DNA of 64,000 bases from Candidatus Micrarchaeota archaeon (GCA_021158105.1 JAGGVH010000038.1:11387-75386), one strand, 5' to 3'. Numbered from the stretch's first letter, positions 6,354 to 26,016 are shown. The notes: generated by a model from the letters alone, not told the origin. Numbers and translations are program-made.

Positions 6354-7625
6354 ATGACAAATATAAAGTTTTATTTATTATTTATATTTTCTTTTTTTAT
6401 ACTGATAAACATCTCATCTGCAACCAGTGGGACAACAGTCAACATGTGGTTATACTATGCGATTACAGTCATAATCTCACTACTCCTTGCAGGAATTTAT
6501 TATGCATTGTCACAGGTTGCACAATCTCCACAGGTTGCTGCACAGGCAAAGAACGAGTTCAAATCAGTAATTGGCACAATTATATTAGGAATTATATTGT
6601 ACACTCTAATTTTCGGGACAGATATAACATCTAAAATCATTGGCGGCAGCAGTGATGCAACACTTTGGACTACTGTTCATAACAATGTAGGTTACCAATT
6701 TAACATCTTACAAAAAGGGTTCAGACAATTGCACAGAGGATATTATTTAATAGGCAAGATTGTAGGGTATTCGTACACTGCTACAATTTCATTGCCTTCA
6801 CTTGCAACAAAGTTTGAGTCTGGAATGCCGGGAATAGGATTGAGTACAATCTATGGTCAGTATGGCCAGATTTTCCAAACACTTTCACAAGGCATGCTGT
6901 TCATCATAGGAGAACTTGTCATAATAAAGTTTGCAATATTTGCAGTGCCACTGTTCATATTTCCATTAGGCCTAATCCTCAGATTATTTTCGCCAACACG
7001 AAGATGGGGGTCAACAGTGATTGCATTAGGTATTGGAATGTATTTCATATTACCGTTCAGTGCAGTATTTAACTCGTTGATATACAGGTCATTGGAGGGT
7101 GTTGAACCTGTTGACGGTGCAATTGATGAGATGAATCAGAACATAATGAGCGTTATGCCGATTGATAAACAACCACCGAACAGGTGGCTTATATGTTCAC
7201 CGGTTGTTGTGCCGTTTGCAGCACTCGGTCATTTAGGATTTAGAGCAGCGATAGTATGTGGCCCATTATGTACAATAGAACATGCTGCTGACTTAGGAGC
7301 AGGTTGGTTACCATGTTATATTGGATGCGTTTCTGGGGGAACACCAGAATCTGAATTTTCAGATTTTCTATACTACGTTGCACAACCCGGATATCAATGG
7401 GGATTATCGGGTCCATTAAAGAATTTTATATCAATAAGTGATGCACAGGTTGAACAAATTGGGAAATCAGTGGCGAATGTAATACTTCCAGTCATTTCAT
7501 ACCAATGGATGCTTGCAATGATGTTACCAGTTTTAAATTATATAATAACGATTGGGTTTATACGGTCATTGTCAACCGCTATAGGCGGTGAGGTGTACTT
7601 TTATGGGATTACAAAGATACTTTAA
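6354..7625 (+). CDS. Member A1 of the novel 12-paralog polytopic membrane protein family (N-terminal TM + SPQVAAQAKNE motif; LPxGxxLRxFxxTRxxGG core)
   Basis: N-terminal TM followed by QSPQVAAQAKNEF. Core FPLGLILRLFSPTRRWGSTVIALGIGMYFILPF. C-terminal SLSTAIGGEVYFYGI. An A/T-rich TATA-like element lies about 30 nt upstream. Confidence 0.7.
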   Translation: MTNIKFYLLFIFSFFILINISSATSGTTVNMWLYYAITVIISLLLAGIYYALSQVAQSPQVAAQAKNEFKSVIGTIILGIILYTLIFGTDITSKIIGGSSDATLWTTVHNNVGYQFNILQKGFRQLHRGYYLIGKIVGYSYTATISLPSLATKFESGMPGIGLSTIYGQYGQIFQTLSQGMLFIIGELVIIKFAIFAVPLFIFPLGLILRLFSPTRRWGSTVIALGIGMYFILPFSAVFNSLIYRSLEGVEPVDGAIDEMNQNIMSVMPIDKQPPNRWLICSPVVVPFAALGHLGFRAAIVCGPLCTIEHAADLGAGWLPCYIGCVSGGTPESEFSDFLYYVAQPGYQWGLSGPLKNFISISDAQVEQIGKSVANVILPVISYQWMLAMMLPVLNYIITIGFIRSLSTAIGGEVYFYGITKIL

Positions 7626-8538
7626 GATCACATTACTTGTTGTCATTATGATGATAACAAATACGTTTGCATACAGTTTTAATGATATGAAATCAGACAC
7701 AATTTTATACATGGCGTTTGCAAGCATGCTTTTATTGGTTATACTTACAGGTGCATACATTATCGGAAAAGGATTAAACAATCCGCAACTCGTTGCATGG
7801 GTTAATGTTGAATGGGTGAATATAATCGTTTCAATACTCTTGGGATTGTTTGTTCTTGGGATGTTTTTAGGGATTAATCAGTTTGTTGTTGACAATTATG
7901 GTGATGACATTTACACCACATCATTCAATTATATTGACGGGCTGACTAACGAGGCGTTATCGTTTGCACAGACCGAAACCAAGAGAAGTTTGACTGACCA
8001 GTTTAAGACGACTGCATATGCATTCATCGGCACGCCGATGACTGAATCTGGCGGGTGCGGCAAGTCATACATGGCATATTTTATGGCATCTGCACAGCAC
8101 AGGGACATGGTTGTTGACCTGTTGACAACTGCAGGAATCAGTTTACAACTGCAGAAGTATGTGTTGTACGGTGGGATGTTGGTTGTGATGACGTTTGCCT
8201 TGCCCGTTGGTATAATGTTGCGCATGTTCCCAGGAATACGCAAACTTGGCAATTTCCTGATAGCTGTGGCGTTTGCAGTGGGCATAGTATTCCCGTTAAC
8301 TTATGTAGTCAACAGTGACATGCACAGGAACATATTCAGTTATTCTGGTGGGTCATGCCCTGTAACGACATTGGGAGCTGACGATGAAGTGTTTCCCAAT
8401 GATCCCGCGCATGGGTGTGTACTGTCAAGGATGGCACTGATATTTCCACAGGCGTTCTTTTTCCCGAACATTTCAATGATAATAACCGGTGCATTCGTAG
8501 CAGGACTTATGCAGGCATTGGAGGGGATTAAGGCATGA
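7588..8538 (+). CDS. Family member A2 (likely true start ATG 7603 after GGTGAGGTG)
   Basis: NNPQLVAWVNVEW motif after the first TM. Core LPVGIMLRMFPGIRKLGNFLIAVAFAVGIVFPL. Stop overlaps the next start by 4 nt. Confidence 0.65.
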   Translation: MRCTFMGLQRYFKITLLVVIMMITNTFAYSFNDMKSDTILYMAFASMLLLVILTGAYIIGKGLNNPQLVAWVNVEWVNIIVSILLGLFVLGMFLGINQFVVDNYGDDIYTTSFNYIDGLTNEALSFAQTETKRSLTDQFKTTAYAFIGTPMTESGGCGKSYMAYFMASAQHRDMVVDLLTTAGISLQLQKYVLYGGMLVVMTFALPVGIMLRMFPGIRKLGNFLIAVAFAVGIVFPLTYVVNSDMHRNIFSYSGGSCPVTTLGADDEVFPNDPAHGCVLSRMALIFPQAFFFPNISMIITGAFVAGLMQALEGIKA

Positions 8539-11441
8539 GGAAAAACTGCATGTTAAGTATTATACTTATAATAACACTCTTGACAATGTTAATGCTTGTC
8601 CATACTATGCACGCAACAGGTTATGAAATCTGCGACAATGGTATTGATGATAATGGTAACGGGGAAACTGACGAGTCAGACTGCATACCTGAAAGCATGA
8701 GCGATTATGTTAACAGGATATATTCTGAATGTCAATCAAACTGCTCATTCACTCCAGAATGTGAATACCTTGATATATGTAACTATACCCACAACCATTA
8801 TTGTGCATGGCCCGGTGAAATTGGACAAACATATACAATAACATTCGATGACGGAACTACTACAACTGTCTCAGATTGTGAGAATGATTGTACAGATGGT
8901 CATGATGATGACGGTGACGGGTTGATCGATTGTTCTGACCCGGATTGTATGGGCAGGGAATGTGATTGGTGTGTATTATATGATGATGAGACTCGGATAT
9001 ACTATGATGATGGAGGTATAGGACCTGGACTAGGAGTTGTTTATGCAGACGGTCGTAGAGTAGAAAGTCGGGTAGAAACTAGAATATGTACTGCTCCTGG
9101 CCAACGCAATAATAGTGAAAAAGGACATTGTGATGACAACTTTGATAATGATGGTGATGCATACAATCAACTGTACTACAAAGAAATTGGAACAGGATAT
9201 ATAATGATATATCCTCAATCCGCACCGGTTGACTGTGTAGACTCAGACTGTTATCTTGATCCAATTTGCTGCGGTGATCATGTTTGCAGACCGCACGAGC
9301 AATGCCCTGCAGATTGTGTTAATGAAACATGGTGTCATGATGGTGTTGACAATGACGGTGACCATTTGATTGACTGTGACGACCCTGACTGTAATTCATA
9401 CTTCTTATGCCAAGGGATACACTTTGAATGCCCAACTGGCAACTGCTCAGTTGACATGATTCATGAGATTGAACAGGGCAACCTGTTCCCGTTCAGTCCT
9501 GCGATCAACAGCATGTTAATGGACTGGAAACTTGTATCAGTAATCCTAATCATGTTAGCACTGGTCATCATTGCACTGATTTACATGGCAGGAACAACAT
9601 TCCAAAACCCGCAACTTATTGCGTTTGCAAAACATGAGCTTGGCCAGGTCATTGTGTCAGCAATCTTCTTAGCAATCATAATAGGTGTATTGTTATTATT
9701 AGAAGTTGTATCGTCATACGTCGGCGAACAGGTGTTCGGGTCAGAGTTTGTTTTCACGTCTAACATGAGCAAACATTTTACGATTGCACACATTTATATT
9801 GAGAATGTTAAGGACGTTGGTGTTACAAAGAGCATAGAACTGTTAAAAGAGAATGTTAAGCTTGGCAAACAGATGACACATAGGAAAGGATGGTCTTTGC
9901 AAACATATCCTTATATTTCATATTCCCAAGCACCTGATGCAGGATATAGAATGAAGTATGAAAGGAATAACCAGATCATGCAAGCATACTCTGGCATGAT
10001 TTCAGCATTGAGCGTCCAGGATGCAGTCCTGAGAGGGTTTGCATGGGTGATCGGCCCGTTGCTTATCATGCTTGGAATAATATTCAGGTCATTCTCGTTC
10101 ACGCGTAAGATTGGTGGCATGCTGCTCGCAGCAGGATTAGGTTTATTCTTTGTTTATCCGTTGACATACTCGCTTGCACTGTTTACTCTTGCAACAACAA
10201 TCTATGGCAATTCGCATGCCATGCCACCGCCCACTGACTGCCCAAGCGAATGCTTAATGGAGCTTCCTATTGCATACAACGGGTCAACAAAGTATTACCA
10301 AGAAGACCTGCTCAACCTAACACCGTCTGGCCATTTCTGGAACGACCCTGAAGCAAAAGAGCATATGAAGGATTTAGGATTAAAGTTCTGTGATGATAAC
10401 ATAACTGAAGGCGGATGTTGTCATAATGACATGTGCAATGATACTCAATCGTGCCCGCGGGAATGCAGGAACAAGCCTTTGATGGGCAACCAGTGCGGAT
10501 GCCCATTTGAAGGTTGCGGGAACTGTCCTGATGAATGTAAGATTGTAAGGAACATGAGCGCGTGCACAGACAGACAAACAAGGTTTGTTGAGGACTATTG
10601 CCCTCAAACATTATGCCCTGACGAGTGCAAAAAAGACATAACTGATGCAATAAACGGTAACGAAAGCGGGTGTGGGAATTGCCCGTGGATGTGCAGATGG
10701 CAAGATGATTCTACAACAGGGTGGAACATCTCAACAGACCCAATATGCAAAAATTATGCAAGTGATTGTATAGGGTGTGATGCTAAGTATAAAATGCCAA
10801 ACACAAATGTAATAGAAAAACAATGTGAAGACAACTGTACATGTCCACATTATGACAGGATATTACACGGAGATCACCCATTACCTGGCCACACAAGAAC
10901 AAATTGTGGCAGTTGTCCTGATGACTGCAAGTATGACATGCGTTTTGACCAGTGGCACTTCACATGCGAAGATGCATGCACCTACATTAACGAGACAACT
11001 GATGAAGAAGTAGTGTGTCCTGACGAGTGCAGGTTTGACGAGCAATACATGGCACCTGAATGTTTTGATAATGATTCAATAATCAAAGCATGTGAAAACT
11101 GTCCAAAGTATTGCAAGGTTATGGAAGTTAAACGAACACCGTGCTCAGCATGCATACAATGCAACAATGACTGCACACGAAAACCTGCAGTGCGCACTGA
11201 CTGTGCAGGGTCATGCTTAGCATATGAGGGCGAGTTTACATTAAACCCAGCAGTCCTGGTCAAAGACCTTAGCAAGGTTGCTGCTGACGGCGACCCTGAC
11301 CTGCAGGCAGCAGGGGTATTGATGGTGCCGGCATACATATTACCATTGTTTAATGTTATTTTAACATTAGCATTCATACGAGGGTTCTCCAAATATCTTG
11401 GTGGTGATTATGAAATCCCTGGGATTGAAAAGGTCATCTAA
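8535..11441 (+). CDS. Family member A3 fused to two large Cys-rich ectodomains (968 aa)
   Basis: Signal peptide. N-terminal domain with CxDGxDDDGDGLIDCSDPDC-type Asp/Cys repeats. Then TM + FQNPQLIAFAKHELGQ, core LGIIFRSFSFTRKIGGMLLAAGLGLFFVYPL, a second Cys-rich domain (CPDEC/CGNCP repeats) and a C-terminal TM + FIRGFSKYLGGDYE. Confidence 0.7.
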   Translation: MRKNCMLSIILIITLLTMLMLVHTMHATGYEICDNGIDDNGNGETDESDCIPESMSDYVNRIYSECQSNCSFTPECEYLDICNYTHNHYCAWPGEIGQTYTITFDDGTTTTVSDCENDCTDGHDDDGDGLIDCSDPDCMGRECDWCVLYDDETRIYYDDGGIGPGLGVVYADGRRVESRVETRICTAPGQRNNSEKGHCDDNFDNDGDAYNQLYYKEIGTGYIMIYPQSAPVDCVDSDCYLDPICCGDHVCRPHEQCPADCVNETWCHDGVDNDGDHLIDCDDPDCNSYFLCQGIHFECPTGNCSVDMIHEIEQGNLFPFSPAINSMLMDWKLVSVILIMLALVIIALIYMAGTTFQNPQLIAFAKHELGQVIVSAIFLAIIIGVLLLLEVVSSYVGEQVFGSEFVFTSNMSKHFTIAHIYIENVKDVGVTKSIELLKENVKLGKQMTHRKGWSLQTYPYISYSQAPDAGYRMKYERNNQIMQAYSGMISALSVQDAVLRGFAWVIGPLLIMLGIIFRSFSFTRKIGGMLLAAGLGLFFVYPLTYSLALFTLATTIYGNSHAMPPPTDCPSECLMELPIAYNGSTKYYQEDLLNLTPSGHFWNDPEAKEHMKDLGLKFCDDNITEGGCCHNDMCNDTQSCPRECRNKPLMGNQCGCPFEGCGNCPDECKIVRNMSACTDRQTRFVEDYCPQTLCPDECKKDITDAINGNESGCGNCPWMCRWQDDSTTGWNISTDPICKNYASDCIGCDAKYKMPNTNVIEKQCEDNCTCPHYDRILHGDHPLPGHTRTNCGSCPDDCKYDMRFDQWHFTCEDACTYINETTDEEVVCPDECRFDEQYMAPECFDNDSIIKACENCPKYCKVMEVKRTPCSACIQCNNDCTRKPAVRTDCAGSCLAYEGEFTLNPAVLVKDLSKVAADGDPDLQAAGVLMVPAYILPLFNVILTLAFIRGFSKYLGGDYEIPGIEKVI

Positions 11442-12513
11442 CATTAAACCTATAATAATGTTTATGCTGATTGTGACCAGTGTTAGCTTTGCAAGTTTTT
11501 GGGATTTATTCTTCTTCCCTATAAACAATTGGATGTTAGTGTCAACCATTGCAGTGTTATTATCAGGAGTGCTCTTAGCACTCACATACATGGTCGCACA
11601 ACTTATGAACAACCCTTATATGACAGCAGCAGTCAAGAATGAGCTTGTGCAATGGGCGATAACATCTTTCATTGTCATGGCGTTTGTTATAATACTTCCG
11701 TCCTTGCTGATGATAGTTGCTTCAGGAAGTTTATCTTTTGGACAGGAGTATACTCCACCAACTGGGTTAAGTGGTGAAGAAGTTGGACCGTCAGGTGTAC
11801 TTGTAACATATGTCCAATACGCTGCAGTAAACATAATCAATCAGACAACCGATAACCTCAAAAAATTAGCCAACAGTCTTGACCGTAGGATTCAAGAGGT
11901 CAGTGAACAATCTGCGATGACAGGAATATGCAACTTTTGGCAGGTAGGGTTTTCAATGAGTTTCTGTGGTGCGCTCGGTGCATTGCAAGGCCCGTTGACC
12001 AACGGGTTTAATGTTGTCAACATGGGAATCGCAGAACTTGAAATGTTAAAGGTGCTGGTTGTGATGGGTGGCAACATTGGACTGCTTATCCTGTTCCCTG
12101 CAGGCATAATCCTGCGAACATTTTCAATGACGCGCAAAACTGGCGGGATATTGATTGCATTGGGTTTGGCGCTCGGGATAATCTTACCATTGAGCGTAAT
12201 ATTCTTAAGGTTTACAGTTGACCAATACTATGCACATTACGGTGGGACTAGAATGTATCATGTCCCATATTTTTATGAACATGATGATGACACATGCGAC
12301 GAATTCTCTACAAACTATGACAAACACATGAAGGTTCCCATATATAGATATACTGATGAAGGTTTTCTGCTTAATGTGGCAGAACCGTTCATCTTAGAAT
12401 CTGTAATAATAACACTGGGCTCATTGTTTTTCACATTAACATTCATTACTTCAATGGGTGCACTGTTTGGTATGCCTGTTGACGTATCAGGACTTGTGAG
12501 GTTAGTGCAATGA
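11398..12513 (+). CDS. Family member A4 (likely start ATG 11410 after GGTGGTGA)
   Basis: NNPYMTAAVKNELVQW. Core FPAGIILRTFSMTRKTGGILIALGLALGIILPL. C-terminal LFGMPVDVSGLVRLV. Confidence 0.65.
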   Translation: MVVIMKSLGLKRSSNIKPIIMFMLIVTSVSFASFWDLFFFPINNWMLVSTIAVLLSGVLLALTYMVAQLMNNPYMTAAVKNELVQWAITSFIVMAFVIILPSLLMIVASGSLSFGQEYTPPTGLSGEEVGPSGVLVTYVQYAAVNIINQTTDNLKKLANSLDRRIQEVSEQSAMTGICNFWQVGFSMSFCGALGALQGPLTNGFNVVNMGIAELEMLKVLVVMGGNIGLLILFPAGIILRTFSMTRKTGGILIALGLALGIILPLSVIFLRFTVDQYYAHYGGTRMYHVPYFYEHDDDTCDEFSTNYDKHMKVPIYRYTDEGFLLNVAEPFILESVIITLGSLFFTLTFITSMGALFGMPVDVSGLVRLVQ

Positions 12514-13646
12514 AAAGGGTTATGATATTATTATTGATGATAAACATAACAAATGCAACATTCTGTGAAGTGCCAGAGGCAAACTCATGGCTGTTACCAG
12601 TGTTCATTGCATTATTCATTGGACTTTTGTTGTCAATCATTGGATACTTTGTAAGCTTATTCTTAAACTCTCCAAAAATGGCGGCATGGGCAAAGGTTGA
12701 AGTCAGTCATCTGGGTACTGCAGCGTTTGTTGCAATATTAATATATGGTGTGATGACATTTTCATGTGATAATAATGCAACACTGGTCTTAGGCGCGTCG
12801 TTCTGGCCCACACCATATAACGAATCGATAACTCCTCAAAACTTCTTTAATGCATCAGCAGACTACTTTGACGGAGTAGCAAATACATCTTATAAAGCAA
12901 TAAAAATGATGAGGTATAACTTAGCAGTGGCTTATGTTCGCGCGTCAATCAGCGCGTTCGGTTCACACCCGCACAGTGGTGGAGCATACGGAATAATACA
13001 ATTGTTGGGTGGGCCGTCAACGTCATGGTCAAAGTTCCCTGATGCTTATGTCCAGGTTTCAATGTTTCAGATGGTGCTGCGCACTGCAACTGTTGCATTC
13101 TTTAACATATTGTTCTTGAAAGCAGTGTTTTCATACATATCAACAGGCGTGTTAACAGTAATGCTGCCAGCAGGGATAGTACTCTATGCAATCCCGTTGA
13201 CAAAAAACATTGGTGGTGCACTCATAGCATTAGCAGTCGGCCTGTTTGTGTTCTATCCTGCAATGTTTGCAATATTAGACATTTATTGGCTACCGTATGT
13301 CCAGAGCGAATGGGAGGTTGCTGACGTTCCAACATTAACAGAAGTTACAGGGTTTACATCCCACATTGCACTCAGTGACTTAGTAAGTGCTGACGTGTGG
13401 GACTGGTGCAAACAACCTGAATATATCTACCCAGTAGGCACATATTCAACATGCGACAGCGGTGATACTGGATTTAATAATTGTTATATAAGAATTTATG
13501 ACTTTATGAGTTATACAGGAATATTGACATTGTCAACAGTATTCTTCCCATACCTTGCAATAATCGTGGCGGGCGCATTGACAAGGGAAGTATCAAAAAT
13601 CATGGGGCAGGAGCTTGACATAACACGACTGGCAACCATGTTGTAG
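12510..13646 (+). CDS. Family member A5
   Basis: LNSPKMAAWAKVEVSH. Core LPAGIVLYAIPLTKNIGGALIALAVGLFVFYPA. C-terminal TREVSKIMGQELD. 4-nt overlap with the upstream gene. Confidence 0.65.
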   Translation: MKRVMILLLMINITNATFCEVPEANSWLLPVFIALFIGLLLSIIGYFVSLFLNSPKMAAWAKVEVSHLGTAAFVAILIYGVMTFSCDNNATLVLGASFWPTPYNESITPQNFFNASADYFDGVANTSYKAIKMMRYNLAVAYVRASISAFGSHPHSGGAYGIIQLLGGPSTSWSKFPDAYVQVSMFQMVLRTATVAFFNILFLKAVFSYISTGVLTVMLPAGIVLYAIPLTKNIGGALIALAVGLFVFYPAMFAILDIYWLPYVQSEWEVADVPTLTEVTGFTSHIALSDLVSADVWDWCKQPEYIYPVGTYSTCDSGDTGFNNCYIRIYDFMSYTGILTLSTVFFPYLAIIVAGALTREVSKIMGQELDITRLATML

Positions 13647-13648
13647 AA

Positions 13649-14746
13649 TTGGGTGGTGAGATGAGGAAGGCATTATTGTTTTTGTTTGTGCTCGGAACAG
13701 TACTGTTTGCACAGGTTGACACAGGCGTAGAATTTAACCAGACAGGTAACGTTTCAACAATGTTGGGGATCAATACACCACCCGGCAGCAGTAGTTATGG
13801 GTGGGCATTGTATGCAATCCTATCATTATTCTTTGTCCTCATGCTTGCTGCGATAGTTTATATGTTAGGAAAATCGTTCAATATACCACAGGCAGAAGCA
13901 TGGGCAAAGGTTGAATTATTAAACATCTTTGGCTCGTTCTTGTTGCTCATTATGATATTAGTAATATTGAACGCAATATATTCAGTGTTTATGGGTTCAA
14001 TGCTGCAAGGCAGTGCATACTGTTTAAAAGAGGGGTATGACGGCAATCATACTATGGACTTTGCAATGTGTAAGGTGCAGGCGCAGATTACTACGCTTGA
14101 CAACCTATGGGCACAGGCTAATGAAGCCAACAAACCACAAGAGGTTGAAGCATCAACATGTTATTCATTATGGGGGCTTACATTATGGTGCGGGGATTGG
14201 TACGGTGACCTGAGGCAGAGGATCGAATCTGCACATTATGTCGGCACAAAAGTTTTAGGGTTGCTGATCCCGTTGCACGCAGAATTTGTCTTGATGCGGT
14301 ACATTGCACAGAACATGTTGGCAGTGTTCTTGCCACTGGGAATCGTACTGCGATGTTTTCCGCCAACCCGTGGACCGGCAGGGTTATTGATTGCGATGAG
14401 TATAGGATTATACTTTGTGTTCCCAGCATTAAACTTTGTCCTTGACCCGTCAACCACACAACCACAGATTGACCAGCCAATAACAAATCAAAAGACTGAT
14501 TATGCATGTTTCCAGGGGTTTAAGAATACCATAACACAAATACAGTATGAAACAGACGTTGAACAGTCACAAATAATGACATATTCCTATGAACAGGCGG
14601 CTGACATAATCGCAGATATTACAATAACAGGACTGTTCTATCCGATGGTGGCGTTTGCGGGTGCTGTGATGTTTATTTATGTCACTGCACCGTTCTTCGG
14701 TGGTGAAGTCATGGACTTCTACAGAGTAGTCAGTAAGATGGTATAG
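13649..14746 (+). CDS. Family member A6 (possible start ATG 13661 after GGGTGGTGAG)
   Basis: FNIPQAEAWAKVELLN. Core LPLGIVLRCFPPTRGPAGLLIAMSIGLYFVFPA. C-terminal FFGGEVMDFYRVV. Confidence 0.65.
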   Translation: MGGEMRKALLFLFVLGTVLFAQVDTGVEFNQTGNVSTMLGINTPPGSSSYGWALYAILSLFFVLMLAAIVYMLGKSFNIPQAEAWAKVELLNIFGSFLLLIMILVILNAIYSVFMGSMLQGSAYCLKEGYDGNHTMDFAMCKVQAQITTLDNLWAQANEANKPQEVEASTCYSLWGLTLWCGDWYGDLRQRIESAHYVGTKVLGLLIPLHAEFVLMRYIAQNMLAVFLPLGIVLRCFPPTRGPAGLLIAMSIGLYFVFPALNFVLDPSTTQPQIDQPITNQKTDYACFQGFKNTITQIQYETDVEQSQIMTYSYEQAADIIADITITGLFYPMVAFAGAVMFIYVTAPFFGGEVMDFYRVVSKMV

Positions 14747-14754
14747 GTGGTATC

Positions 14755-17700
14755 ATGAAAAGATTATTGATCATTGGACTGTTGGTTGTTATGTTTTTTA
14801 TATTGGGCTGTGGCAACAAGCCGGCCTATGTGCCGTGCTGTGTTAATGTCAGTGATACAATTACTTGTTATTATGGTGAAGACCATTTCACAGTCGACCC
14901 TGCGAACTGTACAGGTGAAGGAGTTAACATGACATGCAATGCAACAAACATTGACATCAACGGGACATTAATGAATTTTACTAACATGCGCGCATGCAAC
15001 ACTGGCAAGGAAAACCCGTGCGTTCACCACGGGTGTTATGCAATGGTGTGCGGGGAAAGTTATTATGACCCGAGGGAAGACCCGAGCTATTGTATGCTTG
15101 TCAAGAATCAGACTATAACACCTAACACTAATGCACCAACTGGGCTGTACGGGTCAAAGTGTGCATTCTATGAACTTGATGAGATTACACAAAAAAAACT
15201 TAACAAGGGCGCATGGGTCAATTCGTTCCGCGCAGGAGTTGGAGAAAATTATGATGACTTTGAAGAGGCGAAGTGGTATTTCCCAATAACTGACAGGTTG
15301 ACTTATGCAAACCCGTCAGGGTTTGTTGACAGGTATGCAAACTATCTTCCAGGTAGGCAGAGTCCGTGGTTTCATAAGAAGGAAGATTTTGTAAATATCA
15401 TAAAATTCCAAACCGGTGCAGGCCTGTGCGAACTTAACACTTCGCTCAATGCTTATGTGTGCGCGCTTGAACCAGACATAAAAGTTTACTTGGACGCATA
15501 CCATGGTGCAAAAGGCACTGCACAGGCATGGTGCAACCATCTATGTTTTCACATGACACAGAATAATGTGTCAAAGTGCACTGCAGATGTTCCAGAGGGA
15601 TGGCGGGCACCATGGTTAGCTACATCATACATATATTATCCTGGGGGTATTAATGATTATCCTGATTTTAATACTACAATTCCAGAGTATAGCTTCACTT
15701 TACCTTATTTATATAGAAATTATACAGGATTTGAATATGTAGAGTTCTGGGCATGGGGATATGAAAATGAATTGGAGAAGGGAATGGTGAGGACATCTAT
15801 CGGAGTGGGAGATGACGGTGACCCCTACTACGAGAACACCAGCGGTTGGACAGACGGAAAAGGCACACCGCACATCGGCATGCCATTTGAATGCCTTAAA
15901 CACAGCGACTGCATATCAGGACACTGCACGTGGAATGAATATAAACGGTTCTCATGTGTTGATAAAAATACTGGCAAGGAGATTGACTGCGGGATTGAAC
16001 TTGATTATGAAGACAAGCCAGTGTTCAGAACAATTCAGACTTATGTAAGATGGCATAAATATAATGATTGGGAGGACACCGAGGAAGATGTGGTGGGGGG
16101 TTTGGCAAACGGTGATACCACACTAGTTTCACAAGGCTGCCCACCAAGGGAAAGTGGCGGGGGTTGTGATGATATTACAACTGTTGATGTTGATGAACCG
16201 TTAGTTCCTGGTTCTTCAGGAGTTGTAGAATTCAGAACAAATGAAGACCCTCACAATTTAAAATTTATTAAAGCATGTAATATGACAGAAGGAACGGATT
16301 ATGATTATGAAGTGATAAGTTATGACCATAAAGACTGGATTGATGATCCTCATGAAGGAAACATGTGGGCAGAAGTTTGTTATAATTTAATACCTTATTG
16401 GTGGCAATGCAGAGATTGGTTGGATAATGAGTGGGATAGTAGTGATTATTGTAGTTTTCCATCAAATTATGTTGCAGGAAACTGTGATTTAATACCACAT
16501 TCCACCCATATTTGCGATGCAGATACAAATACAGGGGGGTGGTGTAGTTCAACCAGTCCCATATGGGCTGGGTGTCACCCTTACTCAGGTGATTTAACTG
16601 TGTGTAGTATATGTAATAGACATAGTTGTAAAATGTATGCTAACACATATTGTAAAGTCTATGATAATATATTAAATTCATACGTTCCAGGGAGTTATGA
16701 AAAGGAAAGTGGACAATGTGATGGATGGCAGGACGTTCACGGCCGTTTTGCACGGTATAAAGTTATTATCCATTCATTCGGCAGATGTGAAATGGAGAAC
16801 AAAAGTATTGAAGGCGAAGATAAAACAGTTGTAAAGGTTAACAAGTTTGGATGGTGCGAACCTGCAACATTCTTAGGGTTTGTAGTTGATTATTTGCCAC
16901 TTAATGATATTACTATAACAACAAATGGTGGGGATACTCCCTCAATTGAAAATGAAGATGCAGAAAAAGTAACAGATTATTTTGACAAGATTGCAAATTA
17001 CCAAAAGAATAATTTGATACCTGTCTTATTCTTAGAAGATGTAACAAAAGGATATTCATATTTTCATAATGCTGGGGAGAAATATTTTTCTACACTTTAT
17101 GAAATCCCAGACTATTGGTGTGGTGTGTGGACCAATACTGAATGGGGTTGTGGAAAAAATAATGTACATGTAGCTATGAAAGAAAGTGGATATAATTGGG
17201 GAACATGTAATACTGATTGTGGGAAAGTGAAAGGAACATTTAAATATGAATGCCAACCAACAATGTGGTTTACAAATGAAGTTGACCCATTAAGTTTTGA
17301 AACAGATGATAAACCATTCACATCAGGACATGCAGACAATATATGGGATAATAATCAACACATTTCAACATGGCATAAAAAGTGCACGACTGAACCACAC
17401 CCATTATTTCCAACAACCGGTGCAGCAATTATTGTTGTTGACAGGTTTAAACCCCATGGAAGTGGAAATAGAGATAATATTAACGAATCAATAGAGAGAG
17501 CACGGTTTGTTAAAAAGGAATGCCCATTATGCCTAACTGGTATTTATGTCGGCCAGAAGCACGGTACACAAGAAGGGATAAACAACAGAAAAAAATCTAT
17601 AGACTTATTGTTCAATTACGACCCAACAACAGAGAGGTATGATCATATGGTATCATCAGCATTTGACGTTGTCCTTCTTGAAATGCCTTCAAATGAAGGA

Positions 17701-18639
17701 ATAACTGAAAACAACTTTGCTGAGATGCTCAACGTTTCTAAACATCTTGTCCGCGCATTCAACAAACCATCAATCTGGGTGTTCTCAGAATCAAGCGCGC
17801 CTCCTGACTACGAATACCTGTTTGCTCACCAGCGCGAGCTGACAGATTCAGGAGTTATAGGGATAATCCACCTGCCATGGAAAAAGAATGGTGGGAGCAG
17901 CATTTACATGAACAAACCTGACAAAGGCACAACGTTCTGCTCATTCCAGAAAGGTGCCAATAAACTGATAAGGGTCAAGGTTGACTCAAATTATATGAAA
18001 GTTACAGCAATGAACAACACAGGATGCGAATGCCAACCGTGTGAACCAACAGAAATCTCAGCAGGCGTGTGCAATCCGATATGCGCTGACGGAAAATACT
18101 GTGACGGTTACACACCGGGCGCAGACGTCAAATGCTCAAGCGGCGGGGTGTGCGCACGAATGCAGAACTGCACACCGTGCACCAACATGACACAGTATTT
18201 GAGAGAACATGATGTTCCAGACCCGCACAACCCAGTTCATCATGGCCCGATAAACAATGTCAAGTATAACTGTTCAATACTCACGCCAAACGGTTCAGTA
18301 GTTGAAGGACCGAAAGGCAACTTTGACAATCTTTCAATACTATGGCCCGACGTGATTGCTTCACTACCGGATAGTTTTAGGTGTTGTGTTGTTGAGCCGC
18401 AGACACGGTCTCCTGTAACATTTATAAAGCAAAGTTACTCATCAACTGATAGCGAACTTGACATCTGGAACAGAAAAGCTGACGACGCAGTTGAATGCGG
18501 CAAACCACCGTCCGGCACAAACTGCACATGGTGCCAGGAGGTGCCGACTTTACCGATTGATAAGGGTGAACTGATATGCAACGTGATAGTGGAAAGGGAA
18601 AGCGGAAACGAAGTAATAGAACATGGAGAAGCATATTAA
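14755..18639 (+). CDS. Giant (1294 aa) Cys-rich secreted protein with lipobox-like signal (ILGCG)
   Basis: N-terminal hydrophobic signal ending LGC. About 90 Cys spread over the whole length and many NxS/T sequons. No TM after the signal. Shine-Dalgarno TAGGTGGTA precedes the ATG. Confidence 0.7.
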   Translation: MKRLLIIGLLVVMFFILGCGNKPAYVPCCVNVSDTITCYYGEDHFTVDPANCTGEGVNMTCNATNIDINGTLMNFTNMRACNTGKENPCVHHGCYAMVCGESYYDPREDPSYCMLVKNQTITPNTNAPTGLYGSKCAFYELDEITQKKLNKGAWVNSFRAGVGENYDDFEEAKWYFPITDRLTYANPSGFVDRYANYLPGRQSPWFHKKEDFVNIIKFQTGAGLCELNTSLNAYVCALEPDIKVYLDAYHGAKGTAQAWCNHLCFHMTQNNVSKCTADVPEGWRAPWLATSYIYYPGGINDYPDFNTTIPEYSFTLPYLYRNYTGFEYVEFWAWGYENELEKGMVRTSIGVGDDGDPYYENTSGWTDGKGTPHIGMPFECLKHSDCISGHCTWNEYKRFSCVDKNTGKEIDCGIELDYEDKPVFRTIQTYVRWHKYNDWEDTEEDVVGGLANGDTTLVSQGCPPRESGGGCDDITTVDVDEPLVPGSSGVVEFRTNEDPHNLKFIKACNMTEGTDYDYEVISYDHKDWIDDPHEGNMWAEVCYNLIPYWWQCRDWLDNEWDSSDYCSFPSNYVAGNCDLIPHSTHICDADTNTGGWCSSTSPIWAGCHPYSGDLTVCSICNRHSCKMYANTYCKVYDNILNSYVPGSYEKESGQCDGWQDVHGRFARYKVIIHSFGRCEMENKSIEGEDKTVVKVNKFGWCEPATFLGFVVDYLPLNDITITTNGGDTPSIENEDAEKVTDYFDKIANYQKNNLIPVLFLEDVTKGYSYFHNAGEKYFSTLYEIPDYWCGVWTNTEWGCGKNNVHVAMKESGYNWGTCNTDCGKVKGTFKYECQPTMWFTNEVDPLSFETDDKPFTSGHADNIWDNNQHISTWHKKCTTEPHPLFPTTGAAIIVVDRFKPHGSGNRDNINESIERARFVKKECPLCLTGIYVGQKHGTQEGINNRKKSIDLLFNYDPTTERYDHMVSSAFDVVLLEMPSNEGITENNFAEMLNVSKHLVRAFNKPSIWVFSESSAPPDYEYLFAHQRELTDSGVIGIIHLPWKKNGGSSIYMNKPDKGTTFCSFQKGANKLIRVKVDSNYMKVTAMNNTGCECQPCEPTEISAGVCNPICADGKYCDGYTPGADVKCSSGGVCARMQNCTPCTNMTQYLREHDVPDPHNPVHHGPINNVKYNCSILTPNGSVVEGPKGNFDNLSILWPDVIASLPDSFRCCVVEPQTRSPVTFIKQSYSSTDSELDIWNRKADDAVECGKPPSGTNCTWCQEVPTLPIDKGELICNVIVERESGNEVIEHGEAY

Positions 18640-21600
18640 TCATATTATTCTTATTGTTACTGGTTAATCTTACGTTTTCCATACCAATAACACCAGAAAA
18701 CGAAAGCCAACGAATGTGTGGCCAGCCCACAGCATTCCAGACAAACTTGTTCCTGTCAGTCAACAGAACAAATGTTACAATCATAGGAAGTGCGGTCAAC
18801 CTTACAAACATCAGTGACAGGATCGCGCTCGACAATAAACCAATTTTTGTCAAGGCGGTATGTTCAGACGGCAGCACACACCTGTCCTTCATACAAACAG
18901 ACCCTGAAGGAACTGCAATTTATGACTTATCATCATTATCATCATGCTCAAACTGCACAATTGTTTATTTTATATTTTGCCCGAACACTGAAAATGATAC
19001 TGTTCTTAGGGATTGCTTAAATGTTAATAATACTGTTACACTGCCAGCATTGGGTGGTTCTGCATTATACACATTAAATTATACCTCAGATGTCAAATCC
19101 TACAGGTATTGCCCGCCAACTTCTGCTGACATGCCAAAAGAGGCGTGCATGTTAATCATGTTAATGTTCGGCATACTGGGCGGGGCAATATATTTGTCAG
19201 GGTCGTCGCCGTTCAGGTTCTTCACTGTCCCGCGGATGCGGATGCCAAAGACACAGATGTATCAGGTTAAACCGCAGAGTATGAGCTTTACGATGATGAG
19301 TGTTTCAAGCATTGCAGGCAAGGCAGTGGGCGGGCTTGTAAAATTGGCAGGGAAAGGACTCAAAAAGTTGGGCGTCGGAAAAAAGGGTGACAAGGCAACA
19401 AAAAAAGAAGCTGCTGCAGACCAACCCGAACAGTATAAACCCAAAACGATCTTTGGTAAAGTTTTACAAAACTATAGTGGGTTTGTTGGCATGGTGAACA
19501 TGGCAACAAAAGGAACAATCGGAAAGATTGATATCACTGGAGGTGGGAGAAGCAAAGTAGACAGCAACAGGTTAGCTGCACTTGGCATGGCAGCATTTGC
19601 ACAGGAAGGTGGGATAAACTTTGGCGGAAAAGCATTTAGTGGTGATGTTACAAAGATAAGTGAAAAAATCATTGCAATGATTATTGCAATGATTAAAAAA
19701 ATTCTTGGCATGCTTTTAATGGCACTCTTACCACGACTGTTGGCGTTTTGTCCATTGACAGCAGGAATTGCGGGTTCATTGGAAGGCACCAGTGATTTTC
19801 TGGAAGGTGTGTCATCTTTTTTCAGGTCAGTCGGACTGGGAAAAGCAGCAGATTTTATTGACAAAAACATGGTGAGTAAGATAAGGGGGATATTTAGGTT
19901 GTGGGGCTTGCTTGATAAGTTAGAAGATTTATGCTTAGGCATTGAAACAAGAAAAGGTATGAAATGGTTGGAAGAAATTGCAAAAGGAGTGGAACTTCCT
20001 GAGGAAATTCAAAAGAAACTCAAAAATGGCGAAGCCCTCAGTGACAATGACCTTGAAGAAATAAACAAAAAAATAGAAGACAAAGGATATAAAATGGATA
20101 TGAAGGATGGTTATTTCATTATTCAACACAGAAACTCAAAAGGGAAATGGAAAACTGTCAAACTAGCAAAAGAAGACTTTTCACGTATGCTCAGGATTAT
20201 GCCTGATGACATGCGTGATGCATTACAACCTTTAATAGAATCAATGATCGTAATGTTGGACAAAGGTGCATTCTTAGACAAGTTTGATGCTAAAAATATT
20301 GGTAAGATGAAAGAATGGATTGACAACTTTTCAGAAAAGTATAACAATGCAAAAACAGATAAAAATAAAGAAAAAGTGCTCAATGAATTCAAAAAGAAAT
20401 TGAGAGCACTGGGACTGAACGCAGATGACCCAACTTCAATGGGATTTGAATTTGCAGAGCTCGCAGTAAAAGCAGTAATGGGCGAGAAGGACCAAAACGG
20501 AAAACAGATAACCAGTGATACTGTAATAAATGCGATTGAAAATGCTAAGCAATCCTTAAACCTGAACACTCCCATTGTTGCCATATTATTTGGAAATGCA
20601 TTGAATGCTGCACAAGAAGTAAAAGAATTAGGACTGGGCCATCAGTATTCGGCAGCAGAAGTTGAGAGGAAGATTGATAATGCAAAAGAAGCGATTGAAA
20701 AACTGAAAAAGGAGATTGAACTGCAGACAGACATAATTGACAAAATCAAGAACTCAGATGATATGATAGATTTTGCCATTGCATTAAGAATTAGGGAAAA
20801 GATTGAAGAATTAGAGAGTAAGAAAGAGGCACATACACTATCTGATGATGAAAAGAAAGAATTGGAAAAATATGAGAAGATGTTGGCAGGCAATAAATTC
20901 AAAGATTATTCCATTGATGACTTAAAAGGTATGGAAAAAATTGTCAAAGAAAAGTTCTCTGATGGGTTGCAGCTTGCAGACAGTATTGCAGGTGCAATCA
21001 TTGACAAAAACATTGGTGTAAAACCTGAATTCTCAGACAGTGAGATAACACAGCTGAAAAACAAGCTAAGCAGTATGACAAAAGAAATACGTAAAAATGA
21101 TGTTTTTGAATATGGACTTACTGATAAAAGGGAAGAAATTAATATGTATAAAAAAGACATAAAAGATGCTGAGAAGTTTGCGAAGGGAAGAAGAAATGGT
21201 GAAAAGTTTGCTAATACATTTAAAATTGAAAGCCCAACCGCTCCACCAATCACTGTCAACTTTGATGAATACATTGACAAATTGAAGAAAGACAAGGCTG
21301 AAGCACTTGCCACTGGCGATAGTGCAAAAGCACAAGAGATAGAAACTAAAATAAAAAATGCATATTCAGAAAAGGCCAAACAGTTGCAAGACAGGTATGC
21401 AAAACTTCTCAGTAAACTGGGAAAAGCAGAAGGTGCAAAGCAGCTTAAGATTTGTGGTGAACTTTCAGCACTTGAAGAGGCAATGTACAGTCTTCAGCAA
21501 GACGGAACAACAAACTATTACGAAAACAAGATTGAAGAACTTAAACAGCAAATGATTGATTCACAAAGTAAAGGAGATATAGGAACATATCTGCAAACAC

Positions 21601-23649: not shown

Positions 23650-24450
23650 ATGATTTCAAACAAGATGGTAGTATATGCGCTGTTGCTCATTGCAATAGCT
23701 ACTTTATTGTTATCATTCTACATTGGCGGCGCAATACCTTTCCTGTTCCCGTTGAACCTGATTTTGGTCCTGATAGCGCTTGCACTGTGGAAATTCGGTT
23801 ATCTGTTCACCCCAATATTGGGTGGAGTGATAAGGTCAGACATTCAGATTGGGAAATATGAAATATTGCCAAGCTTAGACGGGATATACCGAAAAGCAAA
23901 CGGGCAATATTATGTTTCAAAATTCTTGACAGCCAACATTTATGAGTCAACAACTGAAAAGACTGAAAGCCAGAAAGGGTTGATGATGGAATATTTTGAA
24001 CGTGCGATAACATCGTTTAAATATCCTGTCAAGATCTCAATGCTTGTTAGAAACATTGACCTTACAAAAAAGCTTGAAGAACTGCGCGCTGAACGTAGCA
24101 GGCTTGAAACACGGAAGGGACACCTAGCAAATGATAACCCACAAAAGAACGCTCCACAGATCTCAATCATTGACAGGAAGATTGCCATGGTTAACAAGGA
24201 ACTTGAAAGACTGACGACTGGCGATAAACCAATGGAAGTTGTATCGCTGATAATGATAACTGCAAAAGGCGCAGGCATTGATGAAGCTAAGATGAAAGCT
24301 GAAGCGCACGCAAAAGAAGTTCAAGCAGTAGTAGGCAACGCATTAGGTGTGGAGGTGTTGCCGTTGAGGGGTAATGAAATGTTGAAAGCGTTTGACTTTC
24401 AATTTTTTATCCCGAGCGACAGTGGAGAGTTTACTGACATGCTTGAATAA
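23650..24450 (+). CDS. VirB3-like small membrane protein (2 N-terminal TM + cytoplasmic domain), immediately upstream of the VirB4-like ATPase
   Basis: Two adjacent hydrophobic helices at aa 7-60, then a charged coiled region. Shine-Dalgarno AGGGGTGA. The position and topology match VirB3/CedA1-type partners of VirB4-family ATPases. Confidence 0.5.
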   Translation: MISNKMVVYALLLIAIATLLLSFYIGGAIPFLFPLNLILVLIALALWKFGYLFTPILGGVIRSDIQIGKYEILPSLDGIYRKANGQYYVSKFLTANIYESTTEKTESQKGLMMEYFERAITSFKYPVKISMLVRNIDLTKKLEELRAERSRLETRKGHLANDNPQKNAPQISIIDRKIAMVNKELERLTTGDKPMEVVSLIMITAKGAGIDEAKMKAEAHAKEVQAVVGNALGVEVLPLRGNEMLKAFDFQFFIPSDSGEFTDMLE

Positions 24451-24483: not shown

Positions 24484-26016
24484 ATGTATCTCAAACCTAA
24501 TAAGATTATAAGTTCAAAACTTGCAATGAGGCGGATTTGGGTCCATCCCCCTGAACCTCCAAAGAGTTTTCTGCTCAGTGATCCCGCAAAGGGTGTATAT
24601 CTAACAAAAACTAAACTGTTCAATGTCCCATTCTTCTGGGATTTTAGGAAACTTATAAACCCCCACATCGCAGTCGTTGGAGTTACTGGTGCTGGCAAGT
24701 CATACCTAGTAAAAACATTCCTGACCCGTGCAAACCTGACATGGAACACTAATGCAATGATAATTGACTGGGTCGGAGAATACAATGACTGGGTTAAACA
24801 GACCGGCGGTCATACTTTGCATTTTGGCAGGGGCGAATACCTTAATTTATTAGACCTGGCAGGCATGAAACCAATACAAAGAGTTAAACAGATCATCAGC
24901 GCATTAGAGATATTGACGGACATTGGAAAGTATCCTGTCCAGAAAAGGTTTACAGAAGATGCACTGATGAACACATACAAAAATCACGGGTTTGAACTTA
25001 CAAAAAAATCTAATAATAAACCGCCAGTGTTGTCAGATGTTATAAAAGAACTTGAGAAGATTAAAAACAAACAGAAAACTGAAAAGAAAAAGGATGACGT
25101 TCAAGAATGCATCCACAGGTTAAAACCCATGACAATAAAAGGTAATGATTACTTTGCACACCATTCAACCATCAACCTTGACAAGATCATAAAGATGGGG
25201 CTTGTCAACATCGACCTTCACGAACTACCATCAGAAGAGATGAGGAGTTTGGCAGGGCTAACCATCCTCCAGATGTTAAAAGAAAAGATGAGGTTTGAGG
25301 GTTGGTCGCCTGAGAAGGGATTAAAACTGTTCATTGTTGCTGACGAGGCATGGAAGATTGCAAAAGATGACAGGAGCGACCTGATAACCATTGTCAGAGA
25401 AGGAAGGAAGTACCAGTTCGGACTGATCGTGGCCAGTCAAAATCCTACTGACATTCACAAGGATATATTTTCAAACGTTGGCACATTGTTCATAATGAGG
25501 TTAATGTTTAAGGAATTTAAGGAGCATGTGCGGTCATCATTACACTATTCTGATTACATTGCAGAACAGATTGACAAGCTTGGTGTGGGCGAATCGATTG
25601 TATACTTGGGTTATGCACAAAAAACTGATTTTAGCAATGTTGTAATATTAAACAAGATTGATGGTGAAGAGCCTTTAATAAATTATACATTAAAAGGTGA
25701 TAAGATGGAAGTTACATTTATGAAAGAGAAATTTAAAAGACAATTAAAAGAGTTTGGACTGAACACGCAACAGATTAAAAATGTATGTGCAATGTTTGAA
25801 GAGCATGACAATGTAATCCATGTGCTACAACTGATTGAACAGCTTGAGAAGTATGGTTTCGGTCCGTCGTTAATCATAACATTCATGAGGGAATTGGGGC
25901 TAAAAGAAGGTGAACTGATCCCGTTATTCTCAAGATTGCAAAGGAAAAAGATGGGTATAGAGTCTGACAAACTTGTACGGTTGGTGGTTGAAGATGAAGA
26001 AACTAAAGAAAAGTAA
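24484..26016 (+). CDS. VirB4/TrbE/CedB-like (HerA-FtsK superfamily, DUF87) secretion/transfer ATPase
   Basis: Walker A VVGVTGAGKSYLVK. Walker B KLFIVADEAWK. The REGRKYQFGLIVASQNP (R-finger/SQ) region is typical of VirB4/HerA ATPases. Shine-Dalgarno AAGGTGGA. Confidence 0.75.
   Translation: MYLKPNKIISSKLAMRRIWVHPPEPPKSFLLSDPAKGVYLTKTKLFNVPFFWDFRKLINPHIAVVGVTGAGKSYLVKTFLTRANLTWNTNAMIIDWVGEYNDWVKQTGGHTLHFGRGEYLNLLDLAGMKPIQRVKQIISALEILTDIGKYPVQKRFTEDALMNTYKNHGFELTKKSNNKPPVLSDVIKELEKIKNKQKTEKKKDDVQECIHRLKPMTIKGNDYFAHHSTINLDKIIKMGLVNIDLHELPSEEMRSLAGLTILQMLKEKMRFEGWSPEKGLKLFIVADEAWKIAKDDRSDLITIVREGRKYQFGLIVASQNPTDIHKDIFSNVGTLFIMRLMFKEFKEHVRSSLHYSDYIAEQIDKLGVGESIVYLGYAQKTDFSNVVILNKIDGEEPLINYTLKGDKMEVTFMKEKFKRQLKEFGLNTQQIKNVCAMFEEHDNVIHVLQLIEQLEKYGFGPSLIITFMRELGLKEGELIPLFSRLQRKKMGIESDKLVRLVVEDEETKEK

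Follow-up and report, generated by a model that had tools for sequence, protein, structure and literature searches.

The described systems with which the gene cluster analysed here can best be compared are the archaeal Ced and Ted machines for DNA import and monoderm-type (MPF-FATA) type IV secretion systems (T4SS). In Sulfolobales, CedD consists of a transmembrane (TM) part, an N-terminal domain (NTD) and an ATPase domain, and CedE and CedA are five-TM VirB6-like proteins (PMC11868833). The N-termini of VirB6 and CedA are homologous to the pilins VirB2 and CedA1, and between the components of Ced and those of Ted no sequence similarity can be recognised (PMC9905601). This study deals with 64,000 nucleotides of DNA from Candidatus Micrarchaeota archaeon (GCA_021158105.1 JAGGVH010000038.1:11387-75386; this whole stretch is hereafter called the window). 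The window contains a cluster of 11 plus-strand genes, here named A to K, in which six membrane paralogues (A to F) are followed by a large cysteine-rich putative lipoprotein (G, open reading frame (ORF) 14755) and by the genes H to K. Among the paralogues, C (ORF 8535) is cysteine-rich as well.

Overall, our analysis suggests that the two cysteine-rich proteins, C and G, are quite likely to be integral extracellular subunits of a conserved complex, since their 1:1 coupling to the membrane genes and their phylum-wide cysteine skeleton argue for structural subunits rather than free adhesins. The wider reading, in which ORF 8535 and ORF 14755 are integral outward subunits of a conserved Micrarchaeota envelope complex that is a divergent, T4SS-derived relative of Ced and Ted, stands in our estimate at an even balance. 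For these proteins we infer, from sequence, complex formation, lipidation, glycosylation, disulfides, Ca2+ binding and function.

Gene cluster and membrane paralogues A to F

The 11 genes A to K are tightly packed, with overlaps or with gaps of 33 nucleotides or less, and the ORFs that the earlier note had named were all recovered at the same coordinates. The first seven genes are as follows (aa, amino acids).

6354..7625, plus strand: paralogue A, 423 aa; L005 orthologue with 42% identity; mutual BLAST similarity among 12 paralogues
7588..8538, plus strand: paralogue B, 316 aa; 56% identity to L005_306; mutual BLAST similarity
8535..11441, plus strand: paralogue C, 968 aa, 72 cysteines; 38% full-length identity to L005_964
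11398..12513, plus strand: paralogue D, 371 aa; identified by mutual BLAST and comparison with L005
12510..13646, plus strand: paralogue E, 378 aa; identified by mutual BLAST and comparison with L005
13649..14746, plus strand: paralogue F, 365 aa; mutual BLAST similarity; 100% identical to P0005
14755..18639, plus strand: putative lipoprotein G, 1294 aa, predicted extracytoplasmic, with a lipobox, rich in sequons and cysteine; 65 cysteines, 35 of them conserved

BLAST comparison of the window proteins revealed 12 mutually similar polytopic membrane proteins, six on the plus strand (A to F) and six on the minus strand. Members of this family have five TM helices and the signature Y...NPQxxAWAKxE...LPLGIxLRxFxxTRxxGG...LGGE. 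An exhaustive search with a hidden Markov model (HMM) gave 3097 representatives at an expectation value (E) <=1e-3 and 591 at E <=1e-30; the named members are all from Micrarchaeota and are all annotated as hypothetical, among them P0005, a Candidatus Micrarchaeota archaeon hypothetical protein identical to paralogue F over 361 aa (99% of the query). Among the top 150 members, 87 are short, with a median of 1.0% cysteine, and 62 are long, with a median of 6.2% and up to 128 cysteines; the long members have two to 14 CPxxC motifs, except for one that has none. The Pfam scan of 87 members of the membrane family gave no family above its cutoff and no TrbL or VirB6 match, and PDB sequence and profile searches from G, the membrane family and protein I gave no match.

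Recurrence of the module across Micrarchaeota

Comparison of loci revealed that the order A, B, C (always long and cysteine-rich), D, E, F, G recurs in L004-L008 with an H-like gene adjacent. Scanning one genome per GTDB species for the G family gave at least 25 loci, which is a lower bound because the scan relied on a single peptide pattern. The named source metagenome-assembled genomes (MAGs) of the 25 loci belong to Micrarchaeota, Micrarchaeia, Anstonellales, Bilamarchaeum and 'ainarchaeum'. ORF calling and BLAST on the loci reproduced the A-F-G arrangement and positional 1:1 orthology of B to F. G directly follows the sixth paralogue in nearly all fetched loci that have both genes and is present as a single copy per module, and an H-like giant TM gene is adjacent in at least 16 loci. 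The cysteine-rich proteins thus do belong to a machine-like gene cluster, as first proposed, with G next to A to F in orthologous loci.

At most loci (L011-L032, for example L014:13908-14810 and L018:13938-14861) G is followed by a gene for a protein of ~112 aa with 12 cysteines and a double zinc ribbon, then by a gene for a conserved acidic protein of ~190 aa, and then by Lon_C, ELP3 and the genuine HerA. Neither the zinc-ribbon gene nor the ~190-aa one has a homologue in the window, and they are therefore not core components. The word-indexed protein search had low recall: it returned four relatives of G and six of the membrane proteins and missed homologues in ENA/JGI data such as L005_1320, and a third search, from an alignment, brought no further ones. 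Against the dozens to thousands of relatives given by the locus scan and the HMM search, its four to six matches are not a sign of rarity. Searches of the accessible literature found no prior description of the cluster in Micrarchaeota or DPANN. It thus appears that neither the two protein families (A to F, and G) nor the complete module have been described; the acidic repeat found in C is already known.

Cysteine-rich paralogue C

Paralogue C consists of a signal peptide, an N-terminal ectodomain, TM1-TM2, a helical ecto-loop, TM3-TM4, a cysteine-rich ecto-loop and TM5; it is thus the family core with two outward inserts, namely an acidic N-terminal domain and a TM4-TM5 loop of 383 residues.

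8616..9530, plus strand: N-terminal acidic cysteine-rich ectodomain of C, aa 28-332; 28 cysteines, 66 Asp+Glu, 5 sequons
10167..11315, plus strand: cysteine-rich extracytoplasmic loop of C, aa 545-927; 43 cysteines, 10 sequons

Cysteine accounts for 7.4% of C (72 in 968 aa), and the housekeeping proteins of the window contain 0.3-1.9%. All 16 NxS/T sequons and all 71 cysteines outside the signal lie within three predicted extracytoplasmic segments, and the short basic loops (NPQLIAFAKHE and FRSFSFTRKIGG) are predicted to face inward. The sequons were counted against composition-preserving shuffles: C has 16 (5.6 +/- 2.1 in shuffles), G has 23 (11.7 +/- 3.0) and ORF 35374 on the minus strand has 14 (6.8 +/- 2.3), so that the dense sequons described in the earlier note correspond to a two- to threefold excess.

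The same note had assigned lipobox-like signals to all of these proteins and to ORF 45070. Such signals, with [ILF]-x-G-C behind a hydrophobic stretch, are present in ORF 14755 (FILGC), ORF 35374 (LLNGC) and ORF 45070 (MFTGC) and absent from ORF 8535, whose signal ends in ...VHTMHATGYEIC and by its appearance is an ordinary signal peptide.

Within the loop of C, 28 cysteines are kept in 18-20 of the 20 orthologues. Four conserved C-x-x-C-P-x-x-C-[KR] modules occur at aa 661, 713, 791 and 853, together with many CxxC pairs. No Pfam family was found for C at E<=0.1. The AlphaFold2 (AF2) model of C, built from a 17-sequence family alignment, has a helical membrane core with a predicted local distance difference test score (pLDDT) of 65-95 and poorly modelled cysteine-rich parts.

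Putative lipoprotein G

Like the lipobox lipoproteins of bacteria and (halo)archaea, G begins with a short basic N-region and a hydrophobic core that ends in [LAIVFS]-x-G-C, and lipid anchoring at the lipobox cysteine is predicted.

14800..14811, plus strand: lipobox I-L-G-C of G, aa 16-19
16822..17934, plus strand: central conserved region of G; alternating beta/alpha in a low-confidence AF2 model; invariant C-P-x-C (C923, C926)
18022..18579, plus strand: C-terminal conserved cysteine-rich domain of G, aa 1090-1275; 13 conserved cysteines

The cysteines of G number 65 (5.0%) and not ~90 as first counted. Gly18 and Cys19 of the lipobox are invariant in 22 of 22 full-length orthologues, and 28 further cysteines are strictly invariant in the 22-sequence alignment. 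Across 24 orthologues, 35 of the 65 cysteines are conserved in at least 80% of sequences, compared with 77 of the 1229 other positions. The earlier note had held that a lack of conserved cysteine positions among orthologues would speak against its proposal; the 35 cysteines of G and the 28 of the C loop are conserved. The conserved cysteines are even in number in both proteins (28 in C and, besides the lipobox cysteine, 34 in G), which fits a disulfide scaffold.

This assignment has a competitor, in which the CxxC and CPxxC arrays bind metals (Zn, Fe or Cu) or form an extracellular thiol-redox relay instead of structural disulfides. The four modules and many CxxC pairs of the C loop and the invariant C-P-x-C of G suit such a role, and anoxic habitats, which are common among Micrarchaeota, favour disulfides less. 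Searches gave no match to a Fer4, rubredoxin, zinc-ribbon or thioredoxin family, however, the cysteine-rich segments lie on the outward side that carries the sequons, and the even number of conserved cysteines fits pairing; we give this explanation little credence.

Apart from the cysteines, G orthologues are only 21-39% identical. The conserved blocks are aa 81-200, 361-440, 641-760, 881-1120 and 1201-1280, and the blocks at aa 201-360, 561-600 and 761-880 are variable, rich in insertions and deletions, and contain lineage-specific cysteines. Divergence of this kind is what would be expected if the cysteine-rich proteins were adhesins for a host or partner surface (S-layer or glycans), with the cysteine skeleton serving as scaffold for fast-evolving binding surfaces. 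The proteins are predicted to be extracellular and glycosylated, the acidic-repeat ectodomain of C was acquired in one lineage, the nearest structural relative of its repeat sits in teneurin, a cell-adhesion protein, and Micrarchaeota are host-attached symbionts. Set against these points, no known adhesin domain (such as Ig, cadherin, lectin or beta-helix) was found in 22 G orthologues, G is coupled 1:1 to the membrane paralogues as a single copy per module, and the teneurin domain concerned stabilises structure and does not bind ligand. A role as adhesins is in our view rather unlikely, although the variable inserts might have a binding function.

No Pfam family was matched by G and its 21 aligned orthologues, and G itself gave no NCBIfam, PHROG or PDB sequence match. 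The low-confidence AF2 model hints at an alternating beta/alpha region at aa ~700-1060. This regular beta-alpha-beta pattern, seen in the model and in the sequence, raises the alternative that G remodels the envelope as an enzyme, namely as a hydrolase of (beta/alpha)-barrel type that would open the S-layer or glycan coat of its own cell or of the host, analogous to VirB1/PrgK of T4SS. Conserved acidic residues stand at strand ends (E737, D971 and E981 are invariant in a smaller alignment), and the beta/alpha region is the part that G has in common with ORF 35374. The region has a pLDDT of only 40-60, however, neither the scan of 22 orthologues nor the PDB profile searches gave a match to a glycoside hydrolase, a peptidase or any other family of enzymes, and a catalytic motif could not be assigned; we therefore consider an enzymatic G improbable.

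If the cysteine-rich proteins were common S-layer proteins or proteases without a connection to the cluster, this would agree with their large size and their predicted glycosylation and secretion. The described S-layer protein of Micrarchaeota contains S-layer domains (PF05123/TIGR) and hardly any sulfur amino acids (Gfrerer et al.). The proteins analysed here differ from it in domains and in sulfur content: they contain 3-7% cysteine and have no S-layer (PF05123 / TIGR01564) or peptidase domain, and they are in strict synteny with A to F. Such an identity, which by the earlier note would have refuted its proposal, thus found no match, S-layer identity is rejected on comparison with the protein of Gfrerer et al., and the explanation as a whole is scarcely tenable.

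Acidic Asp/Cys repeats of C

The N-terminal ectodomain of C contains four copies of an acidic repeat, and the two copies quoted in the earlier note are exact: CTDGHDDDGDGLIDCSDPDC at aa 119-138 and CHDGVDNDGDHLIDCDDPDC at aa 267-286.

8622..8684, plus strand: acidic repeat copy 1, aa 30-50, YEICDNGIDDNGNGETDESDC; degenerate
8880..8972, plus strand: acidic repeat copy 2, aa 116-146; NF033662; PDB match to teneurin-2 at aa 114-140; nine Ca ligands kept
9129..9251, plus strand: acidic repeat copy 3, aa 199-239, CDDNFDNDGDA...DCVDSDC; split by an insertion of ~23 aa; degenerate
9324..9410, plus strand: acidic repeat copy 4, aa 264-292; best stretch for NF033662; match to teneurin-4 (7plp) at E 0.0017

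The NCBIfam model NF033662, 'acidic double-disulfide repeat', is a 32-position repeat model with a curated cutoff of 41 bits; it matches C in two stretches (E 1.7e-14, 53.3 bits). Teneurin C-rich domains are the only PDB sequence relatives of the repeats. The C-rich domain of teneurin-4 is known from a 1.5-A structure in which nine acidic or amide side chains bind three Ca2+ ions in a way that resembles thrombospondin type-3 and LDL-A modules, and has a structure-stabilising role and not one in ligand binding (PMC9058538). All nine of the teneurin ligands (E835, D840, D843, N844, D845, D847, D851, D854 and D856) are kept in copy 4, and all nine positions are kept in copy 2, where N844 is replaced by D.

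Each intact repeat, like the unit of NF033662, has four cysteines within a run of Asp, Asn and Gly (C119, C133, C138 and C143 in copy 2; C267, C281, C286 and C292 in copy 4). In the alignment to teneurin-4, copies 2 and 4 keep its cysteines 1, 2 and 3 and one later cysteine, and their D-x-D-x-D-G-x-x-D core is also that of thrombospondin (TSP) type-3 repeats. The teneurin domain, in contrast, has six cysteines in three disulfides (1-3, 2-5, 4-6), compared with the four cysteines, or two disulfides, of the repeats in C; the position equivalent to teneurin C858 is N287 in copy 4 and M139 in copy 2, so that the repeats resemble the teneurin C-rich domain without being members of it. They also differ in their host, which is an archaeal polytopic membrane protein, and in that only copies 2 and 4 are intact, copies 1 and 3 being degenerate or split, and no Pfam TSP_3 or MopE model matches C.

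The Asp/Cys repeats are therefore well supported as predicted DxDxDG-type Ca2+-binding modules. This upholds one half of the metal-binding claim, through NF033662 and the teneurin-4 ligands, and not the other, MopE likeness. The acidic N-terminal ectodomain was found in only three of 20 C orthologues and is, on sequence comparison, a lineage-specific addition; the repeats are an add-on and not a general feature of the apparatus.

Genes H to K and comparison with Ced and T4SS

The remaining genes of the plus-strand cluster are as follows.

18576..23645, plus strand: H, 1689 aa; sequon-rich N-terminal ectodomain, TM segments and a long coiled coil on the cytoplasmic side
23650..24450, plus strand: I, 266 aa; two N-terminal TM helices and a soluble domain (~200 aa); L005 orthologue with 71% identity
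24484..26016, plus strand: J, 510 aa; P-loop ATPase of the HerA/VirB4/CedB clade; Walker A GVTGAGKS at aa 66-73; no HAS-barrel
25973..26761, plus strand: K, 262 aa, coiled coil with a possible C-terminal winged helix; weak Pfam matches only; overlaps J by 44 nucleotides

The first 200 residues of H contain 11 sequons and eight cysteines and are followed by TM segments and a coiled coil of more than 1200 residues; its weak matches are to SMC/Rad50 and phage tape-measure proteins. The start of H overlaps the end of G by 64 nucleotides, so the true start may lie further downstream. Protein K is the last gene of the packed plus-strand cluster.

Analysis of J revealed Pfam matches to DUF87 (65.6 bits) and AAA_10 (47.4 bits), both above their cutoffs. 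The best NCBIfam matches were CedB (1.6e-24), VirB4-like CD1110 (3.2e-19) and CedD (1e-18); the score against the CedB model is 86.5 bits for an equivalog cutoff of 700, and the VirB4 models are likewise far below cutoff. These matches begin at model positions 251 (CedB), 393 (CD1110) and 221 (CedD) and thus correspond to the ATPase domain alone. The best PDB sequence matches of J are solved HerA structures, and J has the DUF87 P-loop domain in common with the HerA-NurA helicase. In contrast to HerA, J lacks both the HAS-barrel and HerA_C, which are present in the true HerA (L014) that adjoins ELP3, it lies after a two-TM protein inside a membrane-protein operon, and its identity to genuine Micrarchaeota HerA is 21-25%. 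The ~503-aa 'J-like' ATPase at common-type loci was also considered as a part of the system and was rejected, since by Pfam it is the housekeeping HerA beside ELP3. Protein I had no direct homology in Pfam, NCBIfam and PDB searches. By analogy, I and J correspond in size and order to a CedB/CedD-type protein (TM, NTD and ATPase parts) split in two, which makes I the candidate TM+NTD half; as in CedD, the TM+NTD piece would stand directly upstream of the ATPase domain.

The likeness to Ced/Ted and MPF-FATA T4SS extends beyond J. A to F have five TM helices, as have CedE, CedA and VirB6, their N-terminal TM hairpin weakly matches pilin models, and an outer-membrane core is not needed. Few NCBIfam models were matched more than once among 87 family members, and these include CedA (best 4.4e-4), CedE and a pilin-like protein of T4SS, besides the models MAG1210, MamM and CrgA. 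Pfam T4SS_pilin was matched twice among family members, and aa 37-86 of paralogue A weakly match the NCBIfam model for the Mbov_0395 pilin-like conjugal transfer protein (E 0.0067). The I+J architecture, the five TM helices of A to F and the weak CedA, CedE and pilin matches line up in a hypothesis by which the A-F/G/H module would be related to Ced/T4SS machines; we hold it tentatively, somewhat short of an even balance.

Several differences separate the module from these systems. It has six fixed paralogues, compared with one or two VirB6-like proteins in Ced/T4SS, which in turn have no counterpart of the huge cysteine-rich loop, the ~1300-aa cysteine-rich lipoprotein or the giant coiled-coil protein. 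A pilin of its own, a relaxase and a coupling protein were not observed, and in most lineages the ATPase is not linked to the module, the nearby one in common loci being the housekeeping HerA.

Other results weigh against the wider reading of C and G as subunits of a Ced/Ted-related complex. Apart from NF033662 on the repeats of C, A to F, G and H are below every curated threshold in Pfam, NCBIfam, PHROGs and PDB sequence searches. The CedA, CedE and pilin matches are weak, with two of 87 members each at E 4e-4 to 7e-3, below the curated cutoffs, and the window paralogues other than A give no CedA, CedE or pilin match in NCBIfam. The Pfam scan of window ORFs gave no relaxase or coupling protein, a separate small gene for a pilin was not identified, and the pilin-model matches on the TM1-TM2 hairpin are weak. 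Foldseek comparison of the C model with PDB gave nothing below E 0.4, and VirB6 is not among the matches listed. The AF2 model of G aa 95-1294, made from a four-sequence alignment, was unusable (pLDDT 32). The dedicated I-J pair was seen only in the lineage of the window, at the window itself and at L004-6, and L009 has a partial I.

If C and G are outward subunits of a Ced/Ted-related complex, A to F would form a hetero-oligomeric membrane platform or channel, and from their fixed number of six it would follow that each is present once, perhaps in register with an ATPase hexamer. Together, the C loop and G, anchored by its lipid, would form a rigid superstructure between the membrane and the S-layer, stabilised by disulfides, Ca2+ and glycans, and the Ca2+-binding repeats would extend it in the lineage of the window. 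H would tie the complex to a cytoplasmic scaffold, and I and J, where present, would act as a split CedB/CedD/VirB4-like motor powering translocation. The complex would then serve macromolecule exchange or cell contact with a host, and its candidate substrates are DNA, which Ced transports, and other macromolecules from the host.

Second cluster on the minus strand

The cluster at 35374-52913 is an inverted, highly diverged second copy of the module. It comprises six paralogues, two cysteine-rich lipobox proteins of 177 aa and 845 aa and a TM protein of 1919 aa, with no ATPase.

45604..52913, minus strand: cluster 2 paralogues, six members of the A to F family (51612, 50658, 49344, 47910, 46774, 45604)
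45070..45603, minus strand: lipobox protein (MFTGC), 177 aa, 10 cysteines (5.6%); directly after the sixth cluster 2 paralogue
37931..43690, minus strand: TM protein of 1919 aa, positional counterpart of H
35374..37911, minus strand: lipobox protein (LLNGC), 845 aa, 28 cysteines (3.3%), 14 sequons

The six paralogues of this cluster have no cysteine-rich loop and contain 0.2-1.1% cysteine. Comparison of ORF 35374 with G by hhalign gave E 1.4e-3, and the G-family HMM matched aa 241-356, including the C-P-x-C strand, in a weak and collinear domain match; the beta/alpha region is the only part of G with similarity to ORF 35374. We regard ORF 35374, with low confidence, as probably a very distant relative of G; the metagenome scan found no relatives of it. 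The N-terminus of ORF 45070 weakly matches the N-terminus of the G-family HMM, and this ORF is possibly, again with low confidence, a counterpart of G that resembles an N-terminal fragment. BLAST detected no similarity between the 1919-aa protein and H. Two modules also occur in at least one other MAG, PMV_4.13 (loci L017 and L022).

A Lys-rich ORF of 389 aa (43896-45065, plus strand) with a C-terminal hydrophobic segment lies on the opposite strand inside cluster 2; its sole match is a sub-threshold one to DUF892, and the antisense ORF 43868-44395 overlaps it.

The presence of two divergent copies in one window could also mean that the cluster is cargo of a mobile element (an integrated conjugative element, plasmid or virus), with the cysteine-rich proteins as mating-pair or entry proteins. 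J is a VirB4/CedB-like ATPase whose plasmid relatives include conjugative VirB4-like ATPases, and the cluster has a guanine-cytosine (GC) content of 0.42-0.44, slightly above its flanks (the window as a whole has ~38%). The module is nevertheless found phylum-wide beside the housekeeping genes Lon, ELP3 and HerA, no integrase, relaxase or tRNA target is present in the window, the cysteine-rich and membrane proteins have no PHROG match, and the viral-contig scan found no relatives of the G family. Cargo of this kind is very improbable.

Other features of the window

Archaeal housekeeping genes of the window include those for Orc1/Cdc6, FEN1, HMG-CoA reductase, PheRS-beta, IleRS and geranylgeranyl reductase. 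A full-length archaeal RNase P RNA (Rfam RF00373, 126.9 bits) lies at 59754-60029 on the plus strand, directly after the IleRS gene, and ARAGORN found no tRNA gene in the whole 64 kb. With the housekeeping genes, the RNase P RNA and the identity of paralogue F to P0005, the window is part of a DPANN (Micrarchaeota) chromosome. Cumulative GC skew has its maximum at ~32-34 kb, where gene orientation flips from plus to minus (convergent); the maximum adjoins the orc1/cdc6 gene (31580-32566), and the skew there tracks the coding strand. A low-GC stretch at 2001-4000 (0.28 compared with ~0.38) surrounds an AAA_14/DUF4143 ATPase gene (3140-4378), and a second archaeal ATPase_2 protein with an MCM_C winged helix is encoded at 60167-61687.

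Implications for Micrarchaeota

The module bears on the question of how DPANN archaea attach to their hosts and take up building blocks such as lipids and nucleotides. Cryo-electron tomography has revealed bridges, nanotubes and a large docking barrel that have no assigned protein. The DPANN symbiont ARM-1 has a 21-nm barrel beneath its S-layer at which host nanotubes dock and whose composition is not known (PMC11329633); speculatively and by analogy, this barrel might be an example of the docking structure considered here. The module could even be an archaeal envelope machine of a new class, with at most an ancient relationship to T4SS. In it, a pseudo-six-fold ring of six different five-TM proteins would carry a disulfide-knotted, Ca2+-stabilised cap (the C loop and G) and act as a docking or transfer portal on the symbiont side, by which Micrarchaeota would exchange material with their hosts; we think this quite unlikely.

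With its six paralogues, cysteine-rich loop, lipoprotein G, protein H and a motor in one lineage, the module is a concrete candidate for the contact apparatus. Its proteins, all of them unannotated, provide targets in cultivated Micrarchaeota co-cultures. If the link to Ced/T4SS is true, it would extend T4SS-derived machines to DPANN, with an unusual six-paralogue elaboration of the VirB6-like channel.

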